Shown here: one piece after another, positions 4,049-62,422 of the stretch
How positions within the stretch are numbered: position 1 is the first letter of the stretch
How the letters are laid out: each line of letters opens with the position of its first letter
From: Clostridia bacterium
GTDB taxonomy: Bacteria; Bacillota; Clostridia; UMGS1883
DNA length: 64,000 nt
Direction of reading: 5' to 3'
Assembly (NCBI GenBank): GCA_017451505.1
Contig: JAFTOF010000002.1
Coordinates: 65,042-129,041 of the forward strand
Translations under genes and position numbers: made by a program
Notes under the pieces: generated by a model
Database searches by the model: none
The model's input: only the letters and a program-made list of their open reading frames with translations
What the model was told of the DNA's origin: nothing

Positions 4049-4936
4049 TCACACCTTTAGATGCCTTTTAATCGATACAGCACTTCCTATTGCTCCCATC
4101 ATTGTGCCGAAAAGTGCCATCATTACACCAAGCTGCAAAGCACAGGACTGAAGCGGAAGAAAATCAAACATTTTTATAAGGTCTTTAACAGTGCTTATTG
4201 CCGGTGTATAACTAAAGAGTATTACCGCATACGACACAATAAAGCCCAAAGCACCTATCATAATTCCCTCTATTACAAAGGGAGTCCTTATGAATCTGTC
4301 GGTAGCACCTACAAATTTCATAATATGTATTTCCTTCTCACGTGCAAAAACGCTGAGCTTGATGGTGTTCTGGATAATAAACACCGCTATTATCATAAGC
4401 ACAATCATACCCACTGTGCTTCCCTTATTTACCGCACCGGTAAGACTGAGAACCTTTCCCACGGTGTCCTGATAATTTTCCACTTTTTCAATACCTGAAA
4501 TTTTCTCTACAGCTTTTTTTGTATCATTTGATTTTCTGATATCATGAAGTGTAATCTTTATGGAGCTTCTAAGGAAATCCTTATCCTCAAGTCCGTCTAA
4601 AAGGTCACCGTCTTCTCCAAGCTGCTTTTTGAAATTTTCAAAAGCCTGTCTTTCAGTTTCCAAGGTTGCATCATAAACATTATCAAGCTGCAGTACCTTT
4701 TCATAAACCGCACGCTGCTGAGGTTCGTCGGTTTCCAGATACATATATGCCTGAAGCTCACATTGTTGTTCAAGCTGCTTTCCTATGTAGTTCATGTTCA
4801 TAGAAAAAATCACAAACACTCCAAAAAGGAATAGACAGCATGTAACAGTAATAAAAGATGCGATTGTCATAATGCCGTTTCTCTTAAAAGAGCTTGCGGC
4901 ACTTTTAATATAGTATTTCAAATTTCTAAGCACCAA
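4049..4936 (-). CDS. ftsX: Cell-division ABC transporter permease FtsX
   Basis: FKRNGIMTIAS N-terminal motif, large extracellular loop and C-terminal 3-TM FtsX domain; directly follows and overlaps ftsE. Start uncertain (TTG 4936, ATG 4960 or TTG 4984). Confidence 0.85.
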   Translation of the reverse strand: MVLRNLKYYIKSAASSFKRNGIMTIASFITVTCCLFLFGVFVIFSMNMNYIGKQLEQQCELQAYMYLETDEPQQRAVYEKVLQLDNVYDATLETERQAFENFKKQLGEDGDLLDGLEDKDFLRSSIKITLHDIRKSNDTKKAVEKISGIEKVENYQDTVGKVLSLTGAVNKGSTVGMIVLMIIAVFIIQNTIKLSVFAREKEIHIMKFVGATDRFIRTPFVIEGIMIGALGFIVSYAVILFSYTPAISTVKDLIKMFDFLPLQSCALQLGVMMALFGTMMGAIGSAVSIKRHLKV

Positions 4937-5615
4937 TGTTATACACCCCGTTTTCTTCATCGCGTACCAACACACCGTTTTCAAGCTGTATTACACGCTT
5001 TTGCATATCATTAACTATTTTTTCGGAATGAGTAACCATAACAATAGTTGTGCCCATCTTATTGATTTCTTCAAAAAGATTCATGACCTCGGCAGATGTT
5101 TCCACGTCAAGATTTCCCGTAGGCTCGTCCGCAATTATGAGAGAGGGACTGTTCACAAGTGCTCTTGCTATACTTACACGCTGCTGCTCTCCGCCCGAAA
5201 TTTCGTTGGGATAGTTATTTGCACGCTCGGAAAGTCCTACAAGACTAAGTATCTTGGGAACTTTTCTCTGGATGTCCTTCTTTTTCTTACCTGTTATTTC
5301 CATTGCAAAGGCAACGTTTTCATACACGGTTTTATTGGGAAGAAGTCTGAAATCCTGGAAAACCACTCCCTGTGCTCTTCTTAAATAAGGGATTTTTCTC
5401 CTTTTAAGTCTGTTAACCACGATTCCGTCTACTATAACATCACCGCTTGTGGGTTTTATCTCACCTGTGAGCAGTTTAATTGCAGAGCTTTTCCCCGCAC
5501 CTGTTTTACCAACGAGGAAAACGAACTCCCCCTCTTCTATTTTGAAAGATACATTGTCAAGACCGACAATATCCTTGTCATAAACTACGGTAACCTCTTT
5601 GAATTCTATCATCAA
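4926..5615 (-). CDS. ftsE: Cell-division ABC transporter ATPase FtsE
   Basis: Walker A GKTGAGKSS; signature ISGGEQQRVSIARAL; Walker B LIIADEPTGNLD. Confidence 0.95.
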   Translation of the reverse strand: MMIEFKEVTVVYDKDIVGLDNVSFKIEEGEFVFLVGKTGAGKSSAIKLLTGEIKPTSGDVIVDGIVVNRLKRRKIPYLRRAQGVVFQDFRLLPNKTVYENVAFAMEITGKKKKDIQRKVPKILSLVGLSERANNYPNEISGGEQQRVSIARALVNSPSLIIADEPTGNLDVETSAEVMNLFEEINKMGTTIVMVTHSEKIVNDMQKRVIQLENGVLVRDEENGVYNIGA

Positions 5616-5627
5616 ATCACCCTTTCA

Positions 5628-6716
5628 TCAGATACGCATCGGTTTTGATACCAGATACTTTTTAACCATAAGAGCTACTTTAAATACGATAGCATGGTCA
5701 AAAATCCTCAAATCAAGGCCTGTCATCTTCCTTACCTTGTCAAGTCTGTAAACAAGAGTATTTCTGTGAACATAAAGCTGGCGGGAGGTTTCTGATACAT
5801 TCAGATTGTTTTCGAAGAATTTGTGTATTGTATGTAAGGTTTCAGAATCCAGAGAATCAATGGAATCCTTCTTGAATACTTCAGAAAGGAAAAGCTCACA
5901 AAGAGTTGTGGGAAGCTGGTAGATAAGACGGGCAATTCCGAGATTATCATAGTTCATGATAAATTTGTCCCCGTCAAACACCTTACCTACTTCCAATGCA
6001 ATTCTTGCCTCTTTATAGCTTTTTGCTATATCCTTTATGCTGGAAGCAACCGTTCCTATGCCTATATTAACATCTACCATTGCCTCGCTTGTAACAGTAT
6101 CCACTATTTTTGAAGCAAGCTTCTCAAGTTCAGCAGTGGTTGTTCCCATTTTAACTTCCGCTACGATGGCAATCATGTTGTTATCAAGGTCTATAACGAA
6201 ATCCTTTCCGTTATCGGGGAAAATTTTGCTGATAATATCAAAAACATCCACTCCGCGGATTTCATCATAACAAAGGGCAAACACTGCTCTGTCAACATCA
6301 AATGCAAGGTGCAGTTCCTTGCTCTTTAAGAAAATATCTCCGGGAAGAACGCTGTCTGCAAGCATGTTTTTGATAAAGTTGGTCTTATCGTATTTATCAT
6401 TGTGCATTTGCCTGAGCGTTCCAATATAGGAAGAAAGAAGCTCTGCTTGCTTGACCATAAGAGGGTCGTCGTTTTTAATAAAGGTGATATATTCCACACG
6501 TCCCCGTGAAATTACGGCAAAGAACGTATATCCCCCTGCCTGTAATAATCTTGAATTTGAGGCTTGGCAGGCATCAATCACATCAGACGCATTCATGGAA
6601 ATTTCATTAATTCCCGATGCGGTAATCACAGTGCCGTTACCCTCGATTATACCAACTTCACATCCGAGTATTTTGCTTGTTTGTATAAGGATATTGTTTA
6701 GGTATTTATTAACCAT
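5628..6716 (-). CDS. PucR/CdaR-family transcriptional regulator
   Basis: C-terminal PucR-type HTH (ETSRQLYVHRNTLVYRLDKVRKMTGLDL). Confidence 0.75.
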   Translation of the reverse strand: MVNKYLNNILIQTSKILGCEVGIIEGNGTVITASGINEISMNASDVIDACQASNSRLLQAGGYTFFAVISRGRVEYITFIKNDDPLMVKQAELLSSYIGTLRQMHNDKYDKTNFIKNMLADSVLPGDIFLKSKELHLAFDVDRAVFALCYDEIRGVDVFDIISKIFPDNGKDFVIDLDNNMIAIVAEVKMGTTTAELEKLASKIVDTVTSEAMVDVNIGIGTVASSIKDIAKSYKEARIALEVGKVFDGDKFIMNYDNLGIARLIYQLPTTLCELFLSEVFKKDSIDSLDSETLHTIHKFFENNLNVSETSRQLYVHRNTLVYRLDKVRKMTGLDLRIFDHAIVFKVALMVKKYLVSKPMRI

Positions 6717-20324: not shown

Positions 20325-20357
20325 AAAAATCCCGAAGAAAATTCTTCGGGATTTTTT
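20325..20357. terminator. Bidirectional intrinsic terminator
   Basis: AAAAATCCCGAAG-aaaatt-CTTCGGGATTTTT. Confidence 0.7.
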
Positions 20358-46355: not shown

Positions 46356-47237
46356 CTACGCTCTCGGATGTGCTTTTTTATATATCTTTTTAATGTTGTT
46401 TTTGAGCACTTGGTTATATATTCGCGTTGTTACCACATCATTATGCCCCAGCATTTCCGAAACGGCATTGATGTCTGCACCGTTTTGCAAAAGGTGTACT
46501 GCAAAGGAGTTTCGGAGGGTTTGGGCTGTAATTTCCGTTTTAATGCCTGCACTTTGTGCATAGCTGCGGAGAATCTTCCAGAAGCCCTGCCTTGTAAGGG
46601 GAGTTCCGCTGCAATTTACAAAAAGATTTTTTTCCTTACTGTTATTAATAAGATACGGACGTGCCTTTTTTATATACTCATCAAGTGCATCTGCCGCCTC
46701 TTTGCCAAAAGGTATGTACCTTTCATTTCTGCTTCCCACACAGCTTAACATTCCTCCGCGAATATCCACATCTTTCAGCGTAAGAGCTATTATTTCCGAT
46801 ACTTTTATTCCTGTCGCGTAAAGAAGTTCCAGCATTGCCTTATCACGGATTCCTTTTAAATCAGTGGTTTTAGGCTGATTTAAAAGCTTTACGACCTCTC
46901 TTGTGGTGAGTGCCTCGGGGATTTTTTTCTTAACACGGGGAAGCTGGATGCCGCAGGCGGGATTAATCTCAAGCTCTTTCTTCGTAATTCCCCACTGGTA
47001 AAATTTTTTCAGGGAGGCTGTCTGCCTTGAAATCGTGGAATGTGCCTTTCCCTGTGCCCTGAGGTGCTCTATGTAGGCATTAAGGGTTGTCCGCTTTACG
47101 GCGAAAACATTTTTTACTTTATTCTCTTTTAAATAGGAAAAATACGTTTCCAAGTCACGGACATAAGAAGTAAGTGTATTTTGCGACATTCTCTGTTTTT
47201 TTAAATACACCTCATATTCCGCTATTATTTCATTCAT
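46356..47237 (-). CDS. xerD: Tyrosine recombinase XerD/XerC type
   Basis: SAM-like N-terminal domain; ATGIKVSEI (Arg box region); RNSFAVHLL; LGHNDVVTTRIY (catalytic Tyr). Confidence 0.85.
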   Translation of the reverse strand: MNEIIAEYEVYLKKQRMSQNTLTSYVRDLETYFSYLKENKVKNVFAVKRTTLNAYIEHLRAQGKAHSTISRQTASLKKFYQWGITKKELEINPACGIQLPRVKKKIPEALTTREVVKLLNQPKTTDLKGIRDKAMLELLYATGIKVSEIIALTLKDVDIRGGMLSCVGSRNERYIPFGKEAADALDEYIKKARPYLINNSKEKNLFVNCSGTPLTRQGFWKILRSYAQSAGIKTEITAQTLRNSFAVHLLQNGADINAVSEMLGHNDVVTTRIYNQVLKNNIKKIYKKAHPRA

Positions 47238-52685: not shown

Positions 52686-53261
52686 TCATTGCAACGAATT
52701 AGAATGATTTCTATCTGCACTTGCTTCTAATGCTTTATTAGCTGCCTTTATTTTTTCCTCGTCCATTCTCGGAGGAACCATTTCTGCTCCCACATATTTT
52801 TCCTCTGCACTTCTGTGCACCCAACTCATTCCGATTGGGGCAAGGAATATTGCAATTCCCATTATGGTGTGAAAAATCACCGCAGAATAAACCGTAGGTA
52901 AATAAAGATTTGTATATCTGGCAAATTTGGTGACTGCAAAGAGCCATGTATATGTTTCGGCGGAAAAAAGCTTGTACGTTAATGCCGTTACCAGTCCGAA
53001 AACTAAGTATGCACCATAATTTACAAGGAAATACACCTTTGTATTTCGTAAAACGTAATAGCACGCTCTCATCATCCAAATATTAACGGCTACGAAAAGA
53101 GCCGCCGCGATATACAGCCCTATTACAAGCTCCCGACTTCCGTCGGGAAGGGCATTAATTTTGCATAAAAAAGATATTACAGCCGACAGCAAAACACAAC
53201 TGCCTGTTATCTCCATAAATCTTTTATATGCCGCATATAGGATAAATTTGTTCATCTTCAC
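52686..53261 (-). CDS. Polytopic membrane protein, unknown function
   Basis: ~5 predicted TM helices and a hydrophilic C-terminal tail. Same strand as, and downstream of, the giant exoprotein gene. Confidence 0.55.
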   Translation of the reverse strand: MKMNKFILYAAYKRFMEITGSCVLLSAVISFLCKINALPDGSRELVIGLYIAAALFVAVNIWMMRACYYVLRNTKVYFLVNYGAYLVFGLVTALTYKLFSAETYTWLFAVTKFARYTNLYLPTVYSAVIFHTIMGIAIFLAPIGMSWVHRSAEEKYVGAEMVPPRMDEEKIKAANKALEASADRNHSNSLQ

Positions 53262-53282
53262 TGTCCTTCATATGATGTCTGT

Positions 53283-53307
53283 ATGGGGCTATAGAATATA
53301 GCCCCAT
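53283..53307 (-). other. Perfect 11-bp stem-loop between the 56-aa ORF and the membrane protein gene
   Basis: ATGGGGCTATA-gaa-TATAGCCCCAT. No U-tract follows it on the coding (minus) strand. Confidence 0.6.
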
Positions 53308-53330
53308 ATTTTACTTACTTGTGATAGGAA

Positions 53331-53501
53331 TTAGTTGTTTCCCCAGTAGCCTGTTCCTGCTTCTACACTTCCGTTTCTTGGAACTATAGGAGTCTGATTC
53401 TCGCCGGGAGTGTATCCACTAGCCATAATAGGATCTGTGCATACAGCTTCAGTCTGAGAGAAATCAATTATTTCAATTTCGGGTTTTAAATATTTCATCA
53501 T
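53331..53501 (-). CDS. Untracked 56-aa ORF (below the track length cut-off), unknown function
   Basis: MMKYLKPEIEIIDFSQTEAVCTDPIMASGYTPGENQTPIVPRNGSVEAGTGYWGNN*. GGAGG RBS lies 6 nt before the ATG. The ORF begins 14 nt after the stop of the 1707-aa gene. Confidence 0.55.
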   Translation of the reverse strand: MMKYLKPEIEIIDFSQTEAVCTDPIMASGYTPGENQTPIVPRNGSVEAGTGYWGNN

Positions 53502-53515
53502 AATAAACCTCCTAA

Positions 53516-56500
53516 TTAATCATTCGCATGCATTGCTGCATATGCTGATGTTGCAAATTTTGAAGCCATTTCAAAAAGCGGATCTGCTTCACCAGTATTT
53601 TGAATATATCCTAAATATTCATTAATGCTATCCTGTATCCAAGCATACTCACTTCCGTCTGCATTATAAACTGTTATTTTTACGGGCTGATTTATATCAG
53701 CAATAACAAGTTTATCAACAATAACTTCATGATAACGTCCGTTTTTCTTAAGTTCAGCTTCATAGGAATAAGAATCTCCGTTGTGGTTAGTAAATTCAAC
53801 TTTTGCGGTCATATCATCTGTTACTCCAGTAAACAGAGCTATAAGTTCAATCTTATTATCCAGATTAAGAGATGTAGCATAAGCACCCTCTCCACCTGAC
53901 TTGTATTCGCCAGCGTAATTTACTTTGGTAGATGCATACTCAGCAACATTATCCGCTGCGGTAACATTTACAAGTTTATCAGCATTGTAACCAAAGTATG
54001 TCTGTGCTGCCGCACCATAGTTAAGCATATCAGCGATAGCTTGCTTCCACAGTTTCATGCTTGAATCATTTTTATAATAGTTAAAGTAGTTTATAGCATA
54101 GTTCTCTAAGCTTTCTGTTTCAGTTTCACTTACTGCTGTACCATCTGTTTTACAAATTGTAATTTCTACAACATCACCCATCTGCTTTGCAGAAATTCCG
54201 TCATAGGGAATGTAGATATAGTCTCCGTTTGACACCCAAGCCGTGTATGGAATTTCTTTTTCTTCTACGCCTGTTGCTGTAGTATGCTTGATTTTTGCAA
54301 CATAGTCAGTTCCCACTATATCACTCTTTGCATAAATGAAGTTAATAGCAAGCGAATTACCAAGTGTTGCATTTGTTAATGCCAGCTTAAACTTCTCAAC
54401 TTCTTCAATTTCTTTCAGGCTATACTTACCGTCAGTGTAATCAACCTCGTAACCATCTACAGTTGAATTAACTTCAACACCTTCCTGTGCGGTAATTGTA
54501 GCATTAACATCTTTCAGGTTAATTGTACCTTTGTTTGTAAGTGTGCCTGCAATCTTCGCTGTACCTACAATGTTCATTGTACCCTTTTCAGTCACAAGGA
54601 ACGACTGTGTGGTTTCAAATTCAGAGGTTGCATCGATGTTCATGACACCAAGAGCTTCATAGCCAAGTCCCATGCCATTGTGGTTATTAACGATAACCTT
54701 TGAATTATTGTTAAGAGTGATTGTAGCTGTTGCGTCCACGCCACTCTCTGTTTCAGAAGCAGGACGACCGCCAACACTGAAGCCGTGCTTAACAGTAAGT
54801 GTACTGTTATCAAGAGTCATAGTGCCCTTGTTGATAAGATAATCAAGGTCAATTACAGAATCCTTGATAATAACAGTACCGTCATACTTATTGTTGGTAT
54901 TCTTTTCACGTCCTGAAACGTGGATACCTATACCTGTTGGAGACTGACCAGAAGCAGATGTAAGGTTCGCTTTGTCAAAGGTAAGAGTACCATTGCCTTC
55001 ACCGCCACGGCCAACGAACAGGAAGCCCTTGCTCCAGTCAACGTCAGCTGTACCTGTAATGGTAACAGACTTACCGAAAACTGCACCGTTCATAGCGATA
55101 GGAGCGTCGCCTTCTGCCCAGATAAGGGTAACTGTTTCGCCATCTTTTGCAGCTGCAAGAGCGTTTTCCAAACTGTCATATGTTGTTTCGCCGATTTTTG
55201 CAACAGGTTTTGCAATATTAGAAGCGGCAAATTTATATTTCTCGCCAATAGTATAGCTTTCGCTTTCGTCCTTGGGGTTATACATACGAAGCTCAAGCGT
55301 TACTTCAAAATCGGGATTTTTCGCAAGGAATTCTTCTTCAAAAAATACACCGCAGTTGAAATCCTTAACAAATCCATAAACATCGTTATATGTTAATTTA
55401 AGTCCGGATTGACCCATAATGTATGCAGCATATTCCATAATCTTAATGGGCTCGTTTGCTTTAAGGGTTACATCTTCAAACGGAACATTAACCCAGTTTT
55501 CACTCCATGCATCATACTGACCGGAAAGATAGCCGTCTGCCCCACCGTTTGCGTTAAATGTTACATCCTTGTTCACTGTAAGAACGTAATCTGCAAACCA
55601 GTCGCCATAGTAAGCAAGCTGTGCTTCGCTTGCTTCATCTGCTTTGAAGTTAAGAGCAAATGTCAATTCATCATTTTTAATCTCTGTTACTGTAGCTGTA
55701 GGAAGCTCAATAGCTCTAACACCGCCAAGGTCTTCCCAAACAACAGGATTGACACCATCAGCACCGTTCATCTGTGCAGCTGTTGTTGAAACAAGAGTGC
55801 CGTCGATGTAAAGCTCAACCTTAGTAGGTTTATTAAGTGCATTGGGATGTCCTTTTTCCCATGTAGTTGTCCAATAATCATCATTAGACTCGGGATAGAA
55901 GAAATTCCATGTTACTGAATCCTGTGAGCCGTCGATGATATTATTGACATCATTAAGCACTGTTGTAGCCATAAGGGTATCTTCGGAGTAAAGCTTAAGT
56001 ACAAAACTTTCTGCCGCATTTGTGTTTTCAGACTGTCCCCAAACACGTACATACCCGTCAACTTCCTTGGTATACGCAAGAGAGTTGGAGCCTTTGGCCG
56101 GGATATAGAACTCATCCTGTGCGGTGATTTCTCCGCCTGCATCAATCTTGTTGTCATCACCCTTGGTTAAGTCAAGAGTGTTTCCTGTTGCAGTAACATT
56201 ACATGTATTGTCAGCTGTGTAAGACTTAATGTTTACATAACCGTTATTTACAGTATTTCCTGTGAATGTAACTGCTTCACTTGCACTTACAAGTGCACTT
56301 GCATTATTGAAATTGCTACCTGTAACGCTTACAGACTTAGCATCCTTACCGCTCTGGTTATCAGATACACCATAAGACCAGTTGGTGAATGTACAGCCTG
56401 TAATTGTTGCTGTTACATTGGAAAGTGCATCGCCTGCACCCTCACCGAAAATGATAGCACGCTTGGAAGATGAGCCGTTACCGATAAACTTACAGTTCTC

Positions 56501-58639
56501 TGCCGTGATGCTCAACTTGGAGGAGATACCTCTCTGAACACCTGTAGCTTCGCTTACGTCGATTGTGAGGTTTTTAACTGTAGCAACATCTTCAAATCTA
56601 AATACTGTGTTCCAGTTCTTGTCATCAACAGCACCGGTAAGCTTGATTGTCTTTCCGTTACCATCGATTGTAACAGGAACGGTTATCTTCGCACCGTTAT
56701 AGCGGCAGTCCCAAGCATCGGAAATTGTTACATCAGCAAGAAGTGTAAGAGTTGCACCGCTTGTGAGTGCTTTGAGTGCCGCCTGCAAGTTGAAGTAGAT
56801 ACTACCATTCACCTCGGCTACGTCGTCAGTAGCAGTGATTGTAGCACCCTTTGCTGTTGCGGTTACATTTGTTACAGTCACTTCGGTCATAGTACTGCAC
56901 TCACCGTTACCAGCAATATATCCCATACAATAATCGCTGTCTGATGTAATTTCTACATTTTCAGCTGAAACATTTGTTACGGTATTTCCGTCCTGCAACA
57001 GACCTGCTACCGCGGCAGCTGCACCATAAGCACTCCAAATATCAAGGCCTGAAACGGAGCAGTTGGTGATAGGAGTACCGCCTTCTCCGGCATAACCGAT
57101 GATACCGCCTGCACACCAGTAACCTGCGTGCAGATAGCTACCGTCATTAGCTTTTACATGACAGTTGTCAATATCTGGGTAGCCGTGACCTACTATACCT
57201 CCGACATATCCACAACCAACAACATAAACATCACCGCCAACGGTAACGTTGGATACGATTGAATTGCCACCGGCATTTGCTATAACGCCGCCAACGTAAT
57301 CGCCATGCCCCGTTGTCCAGTGGTTAGTAACGTTTGCAGAAACATCCACATTGTTAAACTTCAAATTCTTAATGGTGGGAGTACAATCTTCGCTATAGTT
57401 ACCGACGCGGGCAAAGAATCCCAAATGGTCGCCATCGGCATTGATGTATAGATTGGATATAGTATGATTACCGCCATCAAAAGTACCCAGAAAAGCCATA
57501 TGATCCCCAACGGAGTTTGTACCAATAGGTTCCCAATTTTCGCCAGCAAGGTCAATGTCAGCATTTAGCTTAACATACTTGCCTTTGAACTGGTTGGAGC
57601 CGTCGGACTGATAGGTGTTGACAGTGTCTCTGAACCAAATCAATTCATTAAGGTTGTTGATAAGATACGGATCTTCTTCCGTTCCTGTACCGCTAAGACC
57701 GGTTGTTACCTTTACTACAGTACCATCAATGCTTCCACTTGTAATAGTAGGTTCTTTATCAACACTAACGGTTGAATCAGCGGAAACTGTTACCGTCTGA
57801 TTTCCGCGTACATCAATAGTAGCCTCCTGAGAGTTGGTAATAGTTACGGAAGAACCATTTATATTAACATCACCACACACTGCAGTAATACCGCGGCCAC
57901 TCAAATTAGACATAGTAATTGTAGAGTTATCTATAGTCAAAGGACTATAGTTGAAACCATGTTTCATTTCATCATCTACACCGTCAGCGTCACCGGAAAT
58001 TGTTAGTGTGGAATCTTCAATTGTTGTATCAGCATATGTAACTACACGACGTACATTGTGCAAGTCCATAGTAGCACCGATGATGTTGAGAGTTGCACTT
58101 TCGCTGTCAGCTTTAAATACTCCGCCTGCACTGTATTTATCATTAGAGAGAGTCCATGTTCCGCCGTTTACATTAAGCACACTGGAAGCACCAATGTAGA
58201 ATATACCAAATGCGGAACTGTAGTTGCTGCCTGTTACATTAACATTGTTGAGTGTTACAGTTGTTACGAGTGTTTTCTCATATTCGTCAATGCGGAAAAT
58301 TGCATTAGCACTTGCAACTACACCGTCAATATTAATTGTACCATTCTCAAACGTAAGATTAGTAACATCCTCGAATCTGTTATCACCTGCACGAACATTA
58401 AGTGTTTTTCCGTTCAGGTCAATTGTTGCAGTTACGCCGGAAGTAGTTATTGCTGATGTGATTGTGATATCAGTTCCCAGCTTAACTGTGCCGCCAACTG
58501 TAAGAGCAGCTTTAAGATCTGCTTCAGTATTGACTACTGCTGCAGTGCTTTCCTCCGCCATTGCCGTGATGCCGACACAACCGAGTGCCATTATCATTGC
58601 AACAAGCAAAGATAAAATTCTTTTCATTTCTTGTATCAT
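53516..58639 (-). CDS. Giant secreted protein (1707 aa) with parallel beta-helix-type repeats and a GLUG-motif region; no recognisable wall anchor
   Basis: Signal peptide MKRILSLLVAMIMALGCVGITAMA. Ser/Thr/Asn/Gly/Val-rich beta-helix-like repeats. FLGTFDGGNHTISNLYI followed by YVGGVIANAGG / YVGGIVGHG / CAGGIIGYAGEG (GLUG-type). No LPXTG, SLH, dockerin or C-terminal TM. Confidence 0.8.
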   Translation of the reverse strand: MIQEMKRILSLLVAMIMALGCVGITAMAEESTAAVVNTEADLKAALTVGGTVKLGTDITITSAITTSGVTATIDLNGKTLNVRAGDNRFEDVTNLTFENGTINIDGVVASANAIFRIDEYEKTLVTTVTLNNVNVTGSNYSSAFGIFYIGASSVLNVNGGTWTLSNDKYSAGGVFKADSESATLNIIGATMDLHNVRRVVTYADTTIEDSTLTISGDADGVDDEMKHGFNYSPLTIDNSTITMSNLSGRGITAVCGDVNINGSSVTITNSQEATIDVRGNQTVTVSADSTVSVDKEPTITSGSIDGTVVKVTTGLSGTGTEEDPYLINNLNELIWFRDTVNTYQSDGSNQFKGKYVKLNADIDLAGENWEPIGTNSVGDHMAFLGTFDGGNHTISNLYINADGDHLGFFARVGNYSEDCTPTIKNLKFNNVDVSANVTNHWTTGHGDYVGGVIANAGGNSIVSNVTVGGDVYVVGCGYVGGIVGHGYPDIDNCHVKANDGSYLHAGYWCAGGIIGYAGEGGTPITNCSVSGLDIWSAYGAAAAVAGLLQDGNTVTNVSAENVEITSDSDYCMGYIAGNGECSTMTEVTVTNVTATAKGATITATDDVAEVNGSIYFNLQAALKALTSGATLTLLADVTISDAWDCRYNGAKITVPVTIDGNGKTIKLTGAVDDKNWNTVFRFEDVATVKNLTIDVSEATGVQRGISSKLSITAENCKFIGNGSSSKRAIIFGEGAGDALSNVTATITGCTFTNWSYGVSDNQSGKDAKSVSVTGSNFNNASALVSASEAVTFTGNTVNNGYVNIKSYTADNTCNVTATGNTLDLTKGDDNKIDAGGEITAQDEFYIPAKGSNSLAYTKEVDGYVRVWGQSENTNAAESFVLKLYSEDTLMATTVLNDVNNIIDGSQDSVTWNFFYPESNDDYWTTTWEKGHPNALNKPTKVELYIDGTLVSTTAAQMNGADGVNPVVWEDLGGVRAIELPTATVTEIKNDELTFALNFKADEASEAQLAYYGDWFADYVLTVNKDVTFNANGGADGYLSGQYDAWSENWVNVPFEDVTLKANEPIKIMEYAAYIMGQSGLKLTYNDVYGFVKDFNCGVFFEEEFLAKNPDFEVTLELRMYNPKDESESYTIGEKYKFAASNIAKPVAKIGETTYDSLENALAAAKDGETVTLIWAEGDAPIAMNGAVFGKSVTITGTADVDWSKGFLFVGRGGEGNGTLTFDKANLTSASGQSPTGIGIHVSGREKNTNNKYDGTVIIKDSVIDLDYLINKGTMTLDNSTLTVKHGFSVGGRPASETESGVDATATITLNNNSKVIVNNHNGMGLGYEALGVMNIDATSEFETTQSFLVTEKGTMNIVGTAKIAGTLTNKGTINLKDVNATITAQEGVEVNSTVDGYEVDYTDGKYSLKEIEEVEKFKLALTNATLGNSLAINFIYAKSDIVGTDYVAKIKHTTATGVEEKEIPYTAWVSNGDYIYIPYDGISAKQMGDVVEITICKTDGTAVSETETESLENYAINYFNYYKNDSSMKLWKQAIADMLNYGAAAQTYFGYNADKLVNVTAADNVAEYASTKVNYAGEYKSGGEGAYATSLNLDNKIELIALFTGVTDDMTAKVEFTNHNGDSYSYEAELKKNGRYHEVIVDKLVIADINQPVKITVYNADGSEYAWIQDSINEYLGYIQNTGEADPLFEMASKFATSAYAAMHAND

Positions 58640-58770
58640 CCTTTCCTTTAGATGTCTGCGGTTCTTACCGTCACCGCTTCGGGCAGAAATTGTCTTTTAT
58701 TTAAGGCTGCTGCTTCTGCACATACGCAGCCCTTGGGACAACTCCCATCTATATTAACCCCTGTGGGGAA

Positions 58771-59049
58771 TTACATTCTTTCTCTCCGTTTTTGCCCTCT
58801 TTTTCTGCTCATATTAACAAGGTGCTTACCCACCAAAGGAATCATACTAAGATACAGCCTTTTCATTTCGTGTTGCCAATGAATCCGTTCATTCCCGTGA
58901 GAACGCATTATTTCAAGCTTGATGAAATCGCGGTCATCTGCAAAGGGAAGATATACGCACGTAATAAATTTCATCATCAAAATAATAAAAATCAAAATTA
59001 CCAGGCATATGCCCAAAACCACTACTAATAAATCTGCTCTTGTATACAT
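58771..59049 (-). CDS. Small single-pass membrane protein with basic C-terminus, unknown function
   Basis: 92 aa; one N-terminal TM helix (LLVVVLGICLVILIFIILMM). GGAGTG RBS-like element lies 9 nt upstream. Between the TetR gene and the giant gene. Confidence 0.4.
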   Translation of the reverse strand: MYTRADLLVVVLGICLVILIFIILMMKFITCVYLPFADDRDFIKLEIMRSHGNERIHWQHEMKRLYLSMIPLVGKHLVNMSRKRGQKRRERM

Positions 59050-59131
59050 TAATTCATCACTCCAAAAGATGTCACACTACGATGTCCTTTTGTCGCCAAA
59101 AGGACCAAAAACGCCGGGATTGTTTTTAATT

Positions 59132-59695
59132 TCAAATTTTAACCGTTTGCAACGTTAAAATTGTATTGTACAAAAACTTCATCTGCATATCGGAGGCTTC
59201 CCTATCCTCCCACACACAGTAATCAACCAGAATCGAAATCAGCATATATATGATTGGTGCCATCATTTCAGGCTTGATGTTTGTGAGCTGTGACAGCTCG
59301 ATTATGTATTTTTCATATACTGCTTTAAATTCCTCGGTTTTTGCTTGCACTGCTTTACCATAGTCGGGACTGGTGGCAAACTGGAAAACACGCCTCATCT
59401 CTTTGCGGTACTTATCAACCTCGTCAAGGAAAGTGTCAAAGAAAAGTTTCGGATCGTGCATTCTTTCAAATGCTACCTTAAAAAGTTTGTCCGCAACCTT
59501 TTCCACTCCGTATTTAACCACGTTTATGTAGATATCCTCTTTTCCGTCAAACCAATAGTACAAGCTGCCGTAGGAAACCCCCATTGCTTTGCATAAATCA
59601 CGCACTGAGGTGTTTTCCAATCCGTTTTCTACCAGATATTGAAATGAAGGCTCCAGAAATTCTTTTTCAATATCCTTTACAACCTGATTTCGCAT
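59132..59695 (-). CDS. TetR/AcrR-family transcriptional regulator
   Basis: N-terminal HTH TSVRDLCKAMGVSYGSLYYWFDGKEDIY. GGAGA RBS lies 5 nt before ATG 59695; the track ORF starts at 59737. Confidence 0.85.
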   Translation of the reverse strand: MRNQVVKDIEKEFLEPSFQYLVENGLENTSVRDLCKAMGVSYGSLYYWFDGKEDIYINVVKYGVEKVADKLFKVAFERMHDPKLFFDTFLDEVDKYRKEMRRVFQFATSPDYGKAVQAKTEEFKAVYEKYIIELSQLTNIKPEMMAPIIYMLISILVDYCVWEDREASDMQMKFLYNTILTLQTVKI

Positions 59696-59782
59696 AATTT
59701 TCTCCTTTTTAAGCAGCCGCTTTTCTTTTTTGAACACTTGCTATGAAAGCTTCAAAAAAAAATGCCACTGTATAATTATATG

Positions 59783-59806
59783 ACCACATAATCGAAATTA
59801 TGCGGT
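59783..59806. repeat. Palindromic 24-bp site, copy L1 (10-4-10)
   Basis: ACCACATAAT-CGAA-ATTATGCGGT; one mismatch to copies L2 and R. Confidence 0.85.
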
Positions 59807-59815
59807 AAAAACCTA

Positions 59816-59843
59816 GAACCACATAATCGAAATTATGTGGTTC
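59816..59843. repeat. Palindromic site, copy L2 (24-bp core, extends to a 28-bp 11-6-11 palindrome)
   Basis: GAACCACATAA-TCGAAA-TTATGTGGTTC. Core 59818-59841; same centre orientation as L1, 35 bp away. Confidence 0.85.
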
Positions 59844-59939
59844 TAAGGTCAAAATTTAATACAGCTGGCATTCTTTTTTTGTAAAAGGAGGGCTCCTTGG
59901 GTTAGTTGACAGGTTGTTTTTAAGAAAAAGCGGCATGGT

Positions 59940-59980
59940 AAACAGACCAATATGTGTAAAATAGATACATTGGTCTGTTT
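59940..59980. other. Perfect 12-bp hairpin inside the bracketed segment
   Basis: AAACAGACCAAT-n17-ATTGGTCTGTTT. Confidence 0.7.
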
Positions 59981-60036
59981 GCCATACACGTTTTTTTGCA
60001 TTTTAACTAAACTTGGTGTAAATTCTATGTATGTAC

Positions 60037-60065
60037 TTGACAAACAAACTCCCCAATGTTATAAT
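60037..60065 (+). promoter_or_regulatory. Perfect consensus sigma-A promoter inside the bracketed segment, currently reading rightward (+)
   Basis: TTGACA (60037-60042), 17-nt spacer ending in TGT (extended -10), TATAAT (60060-60065). Confidence 0.75.
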
Positions 60066-60100
60066 ATTCCTGCAAATTAGACGTTCTCTTGTGTTGAGTT

Positions 60101-60124
60101 ACCACATAATTTCGATTATGTGGT
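60101..60124. repeat. Palindromic 24-bp site, copy R (inverted centre)
   Basis: ACCACATAAT-TTCG-ATTATGTGGT is the exact reverse complement of the L2 core. It lies 13 nt beyond the recombinase stop. Confidence 0.85.
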
Positions 60125-60136
60125 ATTTTTATTTTG

Positions 60137-60976
60137 TCAGCAAATCAAAAGCCCCAGCCTTTGAATTTGCACCCTGTGAACATCACCTGTTTCCATTGTG
60201 TAAATTCTTGTAGTGTTGATTCCCGAATGTCCTAAAATATCCGCAAGGCGGACTATATCCTTCTCTATCGAGTAGTAGGTGCGTGCAAACAAGTGCCGAA
60301 GATTGTGTGGGAAAACCTTACTTTGCAAAACACCTGCATCTTCGCAGAGTTTTTTCATATCGTGGCAGATATTACTGCGGTCAAGAGGCTTTCCGCTTCT
60401 TGTTATGAAAACACTTCCGCTTTGAATTTTTCTTTCCTTTACATATTTGAACAATATTTTACATAAGTCTTGCGGCAAAAGCACCCGACGGTGTTTTCCT
60501 TTGCAGTTAATGTGTGCTTCTTTGCACCTTATTGCCTCCACGGTAATAAACCTCAGCTCAGAAACACGGATTCCCGTAGAGCAGATTGTCTGCATCAACA
60601 GATAAAGTCTTTCATTATTCTTGTTTTTCGCTGCACGGAGCAGTTTTTCATATTCTGCCTTGCTAAGCTCTTTTTCCTTATCTGCAAATATGTTTCTCTG
60701 GATTTTTAAGAGTTTCACTTGTAATTCAGTTTTTTCTGAATATTTGAAAAACATATTCAGTGAAGACAGCATTGAATTAACACTTGCGGGGGAATGTGTT
60801 TCAATAAGCTCTCTTTTATACTCTAATACCGCTTGCTTCGTAATCTCTTTTTGTCTGAGCCATTTTCTGAAGGCTTCTACATCATGCAGATATTTGGTTA
60901 TTGTTGCCTCGGCTCTTTCCTCGTCAAACAAATGCTGTCTAAAATCATCCATCATTTCTAATGTGATTTTATACAA
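60137..60976 (-). CDS. Tyrosine recombinase (phage-integrase/Xer-like), candidate invertase
   Basis: SAM-like N-domain (ITKYLHDVEAFRKWL); STGIRVSEL (Arg I); HNLRHLFA (H-x-x-R); LGHSGINTTRIYT (catalytic Tyr). Start is TTG 60976 (AGGAG 8 nt upstream) or ATG 60955. The track ORF extension to 61162 is unlikely. Confidence 0.85.
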   Translation of the reverse strand: MYKITLEMMDDFRQHLFDEERAEATITKYLHDVEAFRKWLRQKEITKQAVLEYKRELIETHSPASVNSMLSSLNMFFKYSEKTELQVKLLKIQRNIFADKEKELSKAEYEKLLRAAKNKNNERLYLLMQTICSTGIRVSELRFITVEAIRCKEAHINCKGKHRRVLLPQDLCKILFKYVKERKIQSGSVFITRSGKPLDRSNICHDMKKLCEDAGVLQSKVFPHNLRHLFARTYYSIEKDIVRLADILGHSGINTTRIYTMETGDVHRVQIQRLGLLIC

Positions 60977-61108
60977 TTCATCATCTCCTAAATAAAAAGA
61001 TATTTTTATTTTAACACACCTTTTGCATTTTATAAATACTTTGGTTGTTTTTTTGGTCTGTTTGATTAAAAGCATGCATATATTTATTCTGACAAAGGAG
61101 GAATTTTT

Positions 61109-62422
61109 ATGCAGGCAGAACATCCAAGACATGGCGGTTTTATCATATCTCCTTTTGGGCAAGCCGTCCCCAAAATGCAGACAAAAGCAATCCCACGCAG
61201 AAAGAGATTCAGCATGGAAGTTTTCACAGCACCGATTTTCTCATTTATGACAGAGTGCAGAGAGCAGTGCAGTATTATATTTCATAATTTCACAAAGCAC
61301 ATATTGTCGTTAGGAATATGGATATGCTGTGTGTTGGTTTTTTTCAAATTTTTCACCTTCGGGACAGGTATATATTATAATGGAAAGCAAATCGCAGTAA
61401 CGTCAGGGACAGCAAACTATGAGGTTGCGGCTCAGGCTGCCAACACTTTTTTATCCTCAAAAAATCTTAAGGGCATAAATCTGCAGTTTATCACTGTGCC
61501 CACGCTTAGTTTACGCAGTAATATAAAAAACGGCAACTCGCTTCGTGACAGTCTTCTTTTATCTTTCCCGAAGCTTAGCCGAGGATGCACGGTCTATTCT
61601 GATGACACAGCCATTTTCACCGCCAAGGATAAGTCGGCGGCTCAAAAGGTCGTTGAAAAATATATTTTGGAATGCAGCGTTGACTCTGATGCAAAAATTA
61701 CTACCAATATAACATATAAAACAAACATTGTGGAAAAGGGCAGCATTTCAGATTTTGAAAAGTGCAGTCTTCTTCTTCAAAACAGCAATCAAGTGAAAGT
61801 AATAAGCGTTGTAAACACAACTGAAAATCAAAATATCCCTTTTGATACAAAATCTACACAGGACAATTCCCTTTACATAGGCGAATCCGTTACAGTAACA
61901 GAGGGAAAAGAGGGCACAGCACAGATAGAGGCTGAAACAGTTTATGAAAATGGCACGCCTCAATCAAGGCGGATTCTTTCGGAAAATGTTCTCATCACAC
62001 CTGTAGCACGGGTTGTCCGTGTGGGGACAAAAGAAAAGGACGTCTTAAAAACGGGGTTGTTTTACCCTTTGCAGGGCGTAGTTTCATCCCCTTATGGTGA
62101 GCGTTGGGGAAAAATACATGAGGGAATTGACATAGCCGTACCGGAGGGCACTCCCGTGTTAGCCGCAGAATGCGGCAGGGTTATATATGCAGGAGATGGG
62201 GGAACTTACGGAAACTTAGTACGCATTGACCATGGCTACGGAGTTGTCACCGCATATGCCCACCTCGGTACAATTAATGTAAAAGCAGGGCAAAGTGTGG
62301 GGGCAAACACGCAAATTGCCCTGAGCGGAAACACAGGGCGTTCTACGGGACCGCACCTGCATTTTGAAGTTGTGAATAATGATACGCCTGTAGACCCCAA
62401 TTTGTATTTGAAAAAGCGATGA
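61109..62422 (+). CDS. Membrane-anchored G5-domain M23 peptidoglycan metalloendopeptidase
   Basis: AAGGAGG RBS lies 7 nt before the ATG. One TM helix (ILSLGIWICCVLVFFKFF); G5-like segment (YENGTPQSRRILSENVLITPVARVVRVGTKE); M23 motifs HEGIDIA and GPHLHFEV. Confidence 0.8.
   Translation: MQAEHPRHGGFIISPFGQAVPKMQTKAIPRRKRFSMEVFTAPIFSFMTECREQCSIIFHNFTKHILSLGIWICCVLVFFKFFTFGTGIYYNGKQIAVTSGTANYEVAAQAANTFLSSKNLKGINLQFITVPTLSLRSNIKNGNSLRDSLLLSFPKLSRGCTVYSDDTAIFTAKDKSAAQKVVEKYILECSVDSDAKITTNITYKTNIVEKGSISDFEKCSLLLQNSNQVKVISVVNTTENQNIPFDTKSTQDNSLYIGESVTVTEGKEGTAQIEAETVYENGTPQSRRILSENVLITPVARVVRVGTKEKDVLKTGLFYPLQGVVSSPYGERWGKIHEGIDIAVPEGTPVLAAECGRVIYAGDGGTYGNLVRIDHGYGVVTAYAHLGTINVKAGQSVGANTQIALSGNTGRSTGPHLHFEVVNNDTPVDPNLYLKKR

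Follow-up and report, generated by a model that had tools for sequence, protein, structure and literature searches.

A probable phase-variation switch with lox-like sites and an adjacent Xer-related recombinase in a ruminant-gut Clostridia bacterium

Invertons are common in gut bacteria, and several site-specific recombination systems share features with the locus considered here. The fimS switch of Escherichia coli is an invertible promoter of about 300 bp that lies between inverted repeats, has its recombinase genes (FimB/FimE) next to it, and turns a surface structure ON and OFF. The fimS repeats are 9 bp long and are not palindromic core sites of the lox type. FimB and FimE are proteins of about 200 amino acids (aa) that lack a SAM-like N-terminal domain, and their genes are transcribed toward the switch. 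In the RecV switches of Clostridioides difficile (cwpV, flgB, and cmrRST), as far as the accessible accounts describe them, a tyrosine recombinase inverts a promoter or leader and controls surface and signalling functions, and one recombinase, RecV, serves several sites of the genome. RecV lies far from most of its sites. Cre/loxP and FLP/FRT have symmetric arms around an asymmetric spacer that sets the orientation of the site, and recombination between inverted sites leads to inversion. The dif site of the Xer recombinases has the consensus CATAA-N6-TTATG, and in the XerS/difSL and XerH/difH systems the site adjoins the recombinase gene. According to the available passages of a 2025 study of the defined gut community hCom2, inverton group 139 contains 33 invertons, 32 of them from Clostridia, in 17 strains; the group shows tight linkage to the tyrosine recombinases that make up invertase group 35, has read-level evidence of flipping, and includes one example with 25-bp repeats around a 206-bp segment and another with 13-bp repeats around a 228-bp segment (PMC11892184). 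Here, we analyze a 64,000-nucleotide stretch of DNA from an uncultured ruminant-gut Clostridia bacterium (contig JAFTOF010000002.1, positions 65,042 to 129,041), hereafter the window, and describe a short promoter segment beside a tyrosine recombinase gene that is probably a phase-variation switch.

The window contains three copies of the 24-bp palindrome ACCACATAAT-NNNN-ATTATGTGGT, named L1, L2, and R (Table 1), where 100 shuffles of the window give an expectation of 0. A first-pass annotation of this DNA had reported the three copies and had described L2 and R as exact inverted repeats, and the matches bear this out. The centre reads CGAA in L1 and L2 and TTCG in R, and the L2/R pair is 100% complementary over 24 nt with 259 nt in between. 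A longer palindrome with 14-nt arms (59814-59845) encloses L2. The 11-6-11 geometry that had been ascribed to this copy is literally true for it, but across the family described below only 10-4-10 (or 9-6-9) is conserved. The distance from the end of R to the stop codon of the recombinase gene (60137-60139) is 12 nt and not 13 nt as first given. A further palindrome, TATAATTATA at 59770-59779, abuts the last left site and is conserved here and in the P0005 and P0004 lineages. It carries TATAAT on both strands and may serve as a weak constitutive promoter or bind a protein.

The segment between L2 and R exists in both orientations. Contigs of the same lineage were sought by a recombinase identical to that of the window (P0001) or by an identical TetR protein, and close relatives were taken only from ENA, Logan, and NCBI. 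Contig L001 (ENA sample ERZ27256817) encodes the identical recombinase. Its positions 5231-5537 match window positions 59818-60124 at 100% on the plus strand, whereas both of its flanks match the window on the minus strand, at 100% and 99.6%. Because the segment lies on the opposite strand relative to collinear flanks, the two contigs differ by an exact 259-bp inversion whose breakpoints fall within the 24-bp sites. The L001 promoter is turned toward the TetR gene, which makes the window the OFF state. The flip toward TetR that the first-pass annotation had predicted thus exists in nature, together with an identical recombinase, and its view of the window as an OFF-state snapshot is supported as well.

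Orthologous loci show the gene order groES, 188-aa gene, M23 peptidase, recombinase, switch, TetR, 92-aa gene, and giant protein, with the TetR gene keeping its place. Lineages with 74-92% identical recombinases have the same site arms and the TCGAAA core; in the 82-92% group the sites are exact but for single arm mismatches, while the intervening segment has diverged. The ON orientation is found in L014 and in eight P0005 contigs, and the OFF orientation in the P0016, P0009, P0006, and P0014 lineages. In one metagenome-assembled genome (MAG), L015, a TnpV/DUF6809/TnpW element that starts at position 4790 has taken the place of the entire switch and of the last ~50 nt of the recombinase gene. 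A paralogous lineage, P0036, has a recombinase that is 67% identical, a different gene neighbourhood, and sites with other arms and another core (ACAACATAA-TACAAA-TTATGTTGT). It is the one paralogous lineage studied beyond the fixed-arm scan described below, and its altered arms belong to the association of the sites with the recombinase family. Its promoter segment is ON in L018, L019, L022, L026, and L027 and OFF in L020, L021, and L023, and an inversion of 280 bp, again exact, separates L018 from L020, whose flanks are collinear. Two more contigs, L024 and L025, end 24 nt beyond the stop codon. In a further paralogous lineage, P0047, a 66% identical recombinase is found beside ACCACATAA-CAGAAA-TTATGTGGT sites, a TetR gene is absent, and the proteins encoded downstream bear dockerin domains.

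Several contigs break at the sites. L002 and L003, which carry the same recombinase, have the window orientation and end 31 and 7 nt past R. L011 and L013 likewise end in or shortly past R, and among contigs with an identical TetR protein L151 and L152 begin at the first base of L2 and L153 begins inside L1. In sample SRR12529333 the recombinase-side contig is L003 and the TetR-side contig is L151, so its assembly breaks at both repeats. This is the pattern expected if both orientations coexist in the sample, though it is not proof. The same breaks could be taken to mean that the inversions of L001 and L020 are assembly artefacts of inverted repeats in a static locus whose palindromes are only terminators; R and L2 do fit a terminator pattern, and L158 folds back through the repeat. 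We consider this explanation very unlikely. The repeat is only 24 bp long and shorter than the usual assembly k-mers, and each orientation should therefore require its own junction-spanning reads. Both orientations recur across independent samples, assemblers, and two lineages. In the scan of species genomes described below, the promoter points toward the recombinase in 41 of the loci listed and toward the cargo in 17, with 5 unclear. The L158 junction itself (4136-4187) is a mis-join in which the contig folds back at the inverted repeat, with the distal site leading directly to the recombinase 3' end in reverse complement.

The number of left sites differs between contigs. The 35-bp tandem unit is found once in L014 (site at 5135-5158), L155, and L159, twice in the window, L001, L004-L009, and L157, and three times in L010 (1519-1612). 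The left-site array thus grows and shrinks among close relatives, and unequal exchange may be the source of the tandem sites. It had been suggested that two tandem left sites allow more than two DNA states. As written, this is not supported: the product of L1 and R, in which the recombinase 3' end would be followed by ...CGAAATTATGCGGTAAAAACCTAGAACCACATAAT, occurs in none of the contigs examined, and what varies is the number of left-site copies, from 1 to 3.

The sites mark a larger family of switches. One genome per species was scanned for ACCACATAA-N6-TTATGTGGT with the arms fixed, and at least 120 stretches were found where about 9 are expected by chance (our estimate, 596 Gb / 4^18). The figures for the family given here and below refer to the matches listed. 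Nearly all of the 80 stretches with source records are from Clostridia, and the cultured carriers include Blautia celeris, B. hominis, Lentihominibacter faecis, Dorea acetigenes, and Lacrimispora strains. A homologue of P0001 (40-72% identity) is encoded in 91 of 120 stretches, the opposite of palindromes kept without any recombinase. An inverted site pair is present in 63 of the 85 stretches that include the C-terminus of the recombinase, and another 14 of these end within ~280 nt of the stop codon. In 73 of 84 loci the start of the first site lies -9 to +25 nt from the stop codon (median 10), and an A-rich tract between stop codon and proximal site is conserved (60-73% per position). The segment is 154-568 bp long, with a median of 228 and 206 as a common length. 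A near-consensus promoter ends a median of 34 bp before one site, and a hairpin lies upstream of the -35 element in 54 of 59 segments. The site consensus is ACCACATAA-T-NNNN-A-TTATGTGGT, its most degenerate part being the outer arm of the distal site. The 63 loci have 45 different cores, none of them palindromic, and within a pair the core of one site is invariably the reverse complement of the other. In several loci, additional tandem sites flank the segment on either side; L080, for example, has two per side.

MAG RGIG5376 (L032 and L102) has two paralogous cassettes with 91% identical recombinases, the same sites with a TTCGCA core, and different cargo. A strict rule of one unique core per module consequently fails, since these two modules share one core, and recombination between them seems possible. 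Among 2.9 million viral contigs there was a single match (L154 878-1131, IMGVR_UViG_2524023161_000007), a site pair 230 bp apart; an association of the sites with phages was rejected on this count.

The recombinase gene next to R encodes a protein with a Phage_integrase domain (PF00589, 94.8 bits, cut-off 27.1) and a SAM-like N-terminal domain (PF02899, 33.9 bits, cut-off 22.3). Its best solved relatives are XerA (5hxy, E = 3e-19) and XerD, and with both of them its catalytic residues (Arg, HxxR, His, and Tyr) align. Its GIRVSEL, HNLRH, LGHS, and RIYT stretches match motifs of XerA (5hxy) in the alignment. All NCBIfam Xer models score far below their cut-offs on this protein (XerA 137/220, XerD 124/330, XerC 114/335, XerS 75/267), as do the FimB/FimE-type models (NF007370 33.5/221, NF007371 28/222). 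A second tyrosine recombinase gene at 46356-47237 on the minus strand encodes a protein 23% identical to the switch enzyme; this protein scores 317 bits on the XerD model, also passes the PRK00283 cut-off, and is probably the housekeeping Xer recombinase. It follows that the 279-aa protein is not the housekeeping enzyme. The 279-aa protein is presumed to catalyse the inversion.

These relationships bear on the idea that the sites are the chromosomal dif, or dif-like bounds of an Xer-mobilised module (IMEX/pdif) on which the housekeeping Xer acts in dimer resolution or in moving the module. The core does resemble dif and the best family and structure matches of the recombinase are Xer proteins, yet we regard the idea as very unlikely. 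The Xer model scores just given stand against it, as does the separate XerD-like gene. The inverted pairs bracket a gene-free 259-bp promoter segment, and the product is inversion and not excision. Several modules may occur in one genome (L032, L102), and GC skew has no sign change at the switch locus. A single dif is found at the terminus, whereas the window locus has three sites and inverted pairs are found in 63 listed loci. Just as little chance of being right has the notion that the adjacent TetR-family repressor uses the palindromes as operators, two to autoregulate tetR and one to control the strong promoter, with no rearrangement. They are indeed perfect palindromes of operator-like size upstream of the TetR gene and downstream of the promoter. 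Their occurrence, however, tracks the recombinase and not TetR: TetR is encoded in 7 of 91 downstream open reading frames (ORFs) while the recombinase is adjacent in 91 of the 120 loci listed, and the same sites flank promoters in loci that lack a TetR gene (as in L028/L107, with dockerin proteins). The segment is also found inverted with breakpoints inside the sites.

Within the segment lies the promoter that the inversion moves. A sigma-70 consensus search of 58500-61300 returned it as the sole 12/12 match, which agrees with the perfect promoter reported at first inside the bracketed segment. The internal hairpin beside it has predicted folding energies of -35.5 and -29.4 kcal/mol on the two strands (z about -7) and is a candidate bidirectional terminator that would insulate the operon from recombinase read-through. 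R followed by the run TTTTTATTTT (60100-60135, plus strand) fits the pattern of an intrinsic terminator; the R fold is -12.5 kcal/mol, and UUUUUAUUUU comes next on the plus strand. The gene-proximal site R may thus also terminate transcripts from the OFF-state promoter. Since the R hairpin and U-tract lie between the promoter and the recombinase gene, the OFF-state promoter may not read far into that gene, and the statement that it fires antisense into the recombinase is not supported as written. The promoter and terminator activities discussed here are predictions from sequence. A stretch with TTTTGCATTTTA and GGTCTGTTTG at 61015-61065, upstream of the recombinase gene, resembles 59972-60014 of the invertible segment; it is common to the window and L014 and absent in L004, L005, and L016. 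With that same distribution, the motif AACAGACCAAAAAAA, which lies upstream of the recombinase gene and resembles half of the internal hairpin, was dropped as a candidate shared regulator site. Four other perfect 9-6-9 palindromes in the window, at 20329, 26713, 52318, and 62437, are unrelated in sequence to the switch sites and are probably terminator hairpins.

Table 1. Features of the switch locus and its neighbouring genes, in window coordinates.
Feature	Position	Strand or orientation	Description
Site L1	59783-59806	+ orientation	ACCACATAATCGAAATTATGCGGT; single mismatch in one arm; 35-bp tandem unit with L2
Site L2	59818-59841	+ orientation	Exact, ACCACATAA-TCGAAA-TTATGTGGT; holds one observed inversion breakpoint
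Invertible segment	59842-60100		259 bp; OFF orientation in the window
Internal hairpin	59925-59995		Predicted folding; A-run and T-run at its flanks
Invertible promoter	60037-60065	+	TTGACA-17-TATAAT with upstream TG; points at the 3' end of the recombinase gene
Site R	60101-60124	Exact on minus strand	Inverted relative to L1 and L2; other inversion breakpoint inside R
T-rich tract	60125-60136	+	ATTTTTATTTTG; between R and recombinase stop codon
Tyrosine recombinase (P0001)	60137-60976	-	279 aa; TTG start; AGGAG ribosome-binding site upstream; presumed invertase
Weak promoter-like match	61008-61036	-	TTTATA-17-TAAAAT with TG, 9/12; upstream of recombinase gene; consensus match only
TetR-family regulator	59132-59695	-	TetR_N; first gene downstream of the switch when ON
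92-aa protein	58771-59049	-	N-terminal hydrophobic helix, basic tail; conserved after TetR gene
1707-aa secreted protein	53516-58639	-	Signal-peptide-like N-terminus; rich in T, G, N, and V; predicted all-beta
56-aa ORF and 191-aa multi-pass membrane protein	52686-53501	-	Same strand as TetR gene

The genes from TetR through the 191-aa gene appear to form one operon, with the 56-aa and 191-aa genes, by their strand and spacing, possibly at its end. The 1707-aa product is presumed to be a phase-variable surface protein. In L001 the corresponding allele is 779 aa long, and similarity ends after about residue 302 of the 1707 aa; the divergence spans window 53516-57733 and L001 7622-9067, despite the identical recombinase and switch. 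In the P0036 lineage, L018 and L019 are 99.6% identical over the recombinase, the switch, and most of the TetR gene, and are unrelated downstream of position 5753, where one has a 157/395/236-aa set and the other a 173/207-aa set and an M48 peptidase. Across the family, the downstream ORFs contain BspA-type leucine-rich repeats, dockerin, collagen repeats, CBM, fn3, and T-Q ester domains, as well as Listeria-Bacteroides repeats, acyltransferase_3, EAL/GGDEF, and TetR domains. The family cargo is mostly surface or signalling proteins, which is usual for phase-variable loci.

We conclude with a probability of about 0.88 that the locus is a phase-variation switch of the promoter-inverton type. 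In this mechanism the 279-aa Xer-related recombinase would bind the symmetric arms ACCACATAA and TTATGTGGT of each site, and strand exchange would take place within the asymmetric T-CGAA-A core of R and L2, that is, by analogy with Xer and Cre, probably in the 6-bp T-NNNN-A region. Because L2 and R are inverted, the 259-bp segment between them flips, bringing with it the hairpin and the consensus sigma-70 promoter, which lies about 35 bp from one end. In the OFF state the promoter faces the recombinase gene and its transcript would meet the R hairpin and then the U-tract, the TetR/92-aa/1707-aa operon would be left without a strong promoter, and the internal hairpin would shield it from recombinase read-through. 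In the ON state, that of L001 and most close relatives, the promoter would read through L2 and L1 into the TetR and secreted-protein genes.

Several points weigh against this conclusion. The link between recombinase and inversion is an association, namely the homologue found in 91 of 120 listed site-bearing stretches, and the dependence of the inversion on this enzyme is presumed. Two site hairpins lie in the path of the ON transcript and could attenuate it, and the conserved TATAAT by L1 could give the TetR gene expression that is independent of the switch. Heterogeneity within a population is read from contig breaks and from differences between samples. Lastly, the 1707-aa protein has no Pfam match at E <= 0.001 (a GLUG match at E 0.0013 is weak) and no PDB or PADLOC match, and its structure model is poor: single-sequence AlphaFold gave a mean predicted local distance difference test score (pLDDT) of 47.9 for residues 28-620.

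A broader proposal, to which we give somewhat less than even odds, is that a self-contained and largely uncharacterised switch cassette has spread among the Clostridia of gut and rumen, and that the locus is one copy of it. The marks of this cassette would be a lox-like site abutting the stop codon of a 279-aa Xer-derived invertase, constant 9-10-bp arms around a 4-bp core that varies from locus to locus, the hairpin-promoter layout, a site that acts as terminator, and tandem copies. In such a cassette the gene-proximal site would double as a terminator that shields the invertase from its own switch, and the tandem site copies (1 to 3) might arise by recombinase-mediated unequal exchange and permit extra DNA states. 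If the proposal is true, the variable core would serve as a code that matches partner sites where the enzymes are very similar. The available passages of the hCom2 study describe no site geometry, stop-codon-adjacent position, variable core, or hairpin-plus-promoter layout (PMC11892184). A literature search with the site sequence returned only unrelated primer matches, searches on invertons of Clostridia led to this study as the one relevant catalogue, and the family-level anatomy was not found in the accessible literature.

The locus points to phase variation, found from sequence, in an uncultured ruminant-gut Clostridia bacterium, where it would control a regulator and a giant secreted protein. 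It also yields a simple rule for finding others: ACCACATAA-N6-TTATGTGGT after a recombinase stop codon, with its inverted partner at a distance of 150-310 bp in most loci (568 bp at the longest). In many Clostridia, cultured Blautia, Dorea, Lentihominibacter, and Lacrimispora strains among them, the rule picks out switches that lie upstream of surface proteins. Such compact pairs of recombinase and site, with cores that can be exchanged, could serve as orthogonal genetic switches.

In its logic, the switch is a fimS-type promoter inverton with an adjacent recombinase, built from sites of lox/dif geometry and an Xer-related enzyme. The FimB/FimE-type models give its recombinase 28-34 bits against cut-offs of ~221. 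Compared with Cre/loxP and FLP/FRT, the arms are 9-10 bp instead of 13 bp and the core is a variable 4-6 bp; the enzyme is Xer-like and not Cre-like, and Cre and FLP serve plasmid or phage maintenance whereas this switch would serve gene regulation. By the accessible descriptions, the family differs from the RecV switches in that its own recombinase abuts each switch. The Xer/dif systems (XerA, XerD, XerH, XerS) are the closest relatives in sequence and structure, and the core is dif-like. Unlike in those systems, the window sites form inverted pairs with a promoter between them and yield an inversion, and the enzyme scores below the family cut-offs. Finally, taxon, repeat length, segment length, and recombinase adjacency agree with those given for inverton group 139 in the available passages of the hCom2 study, and by these four features the window family may be that group (PMC11892184).

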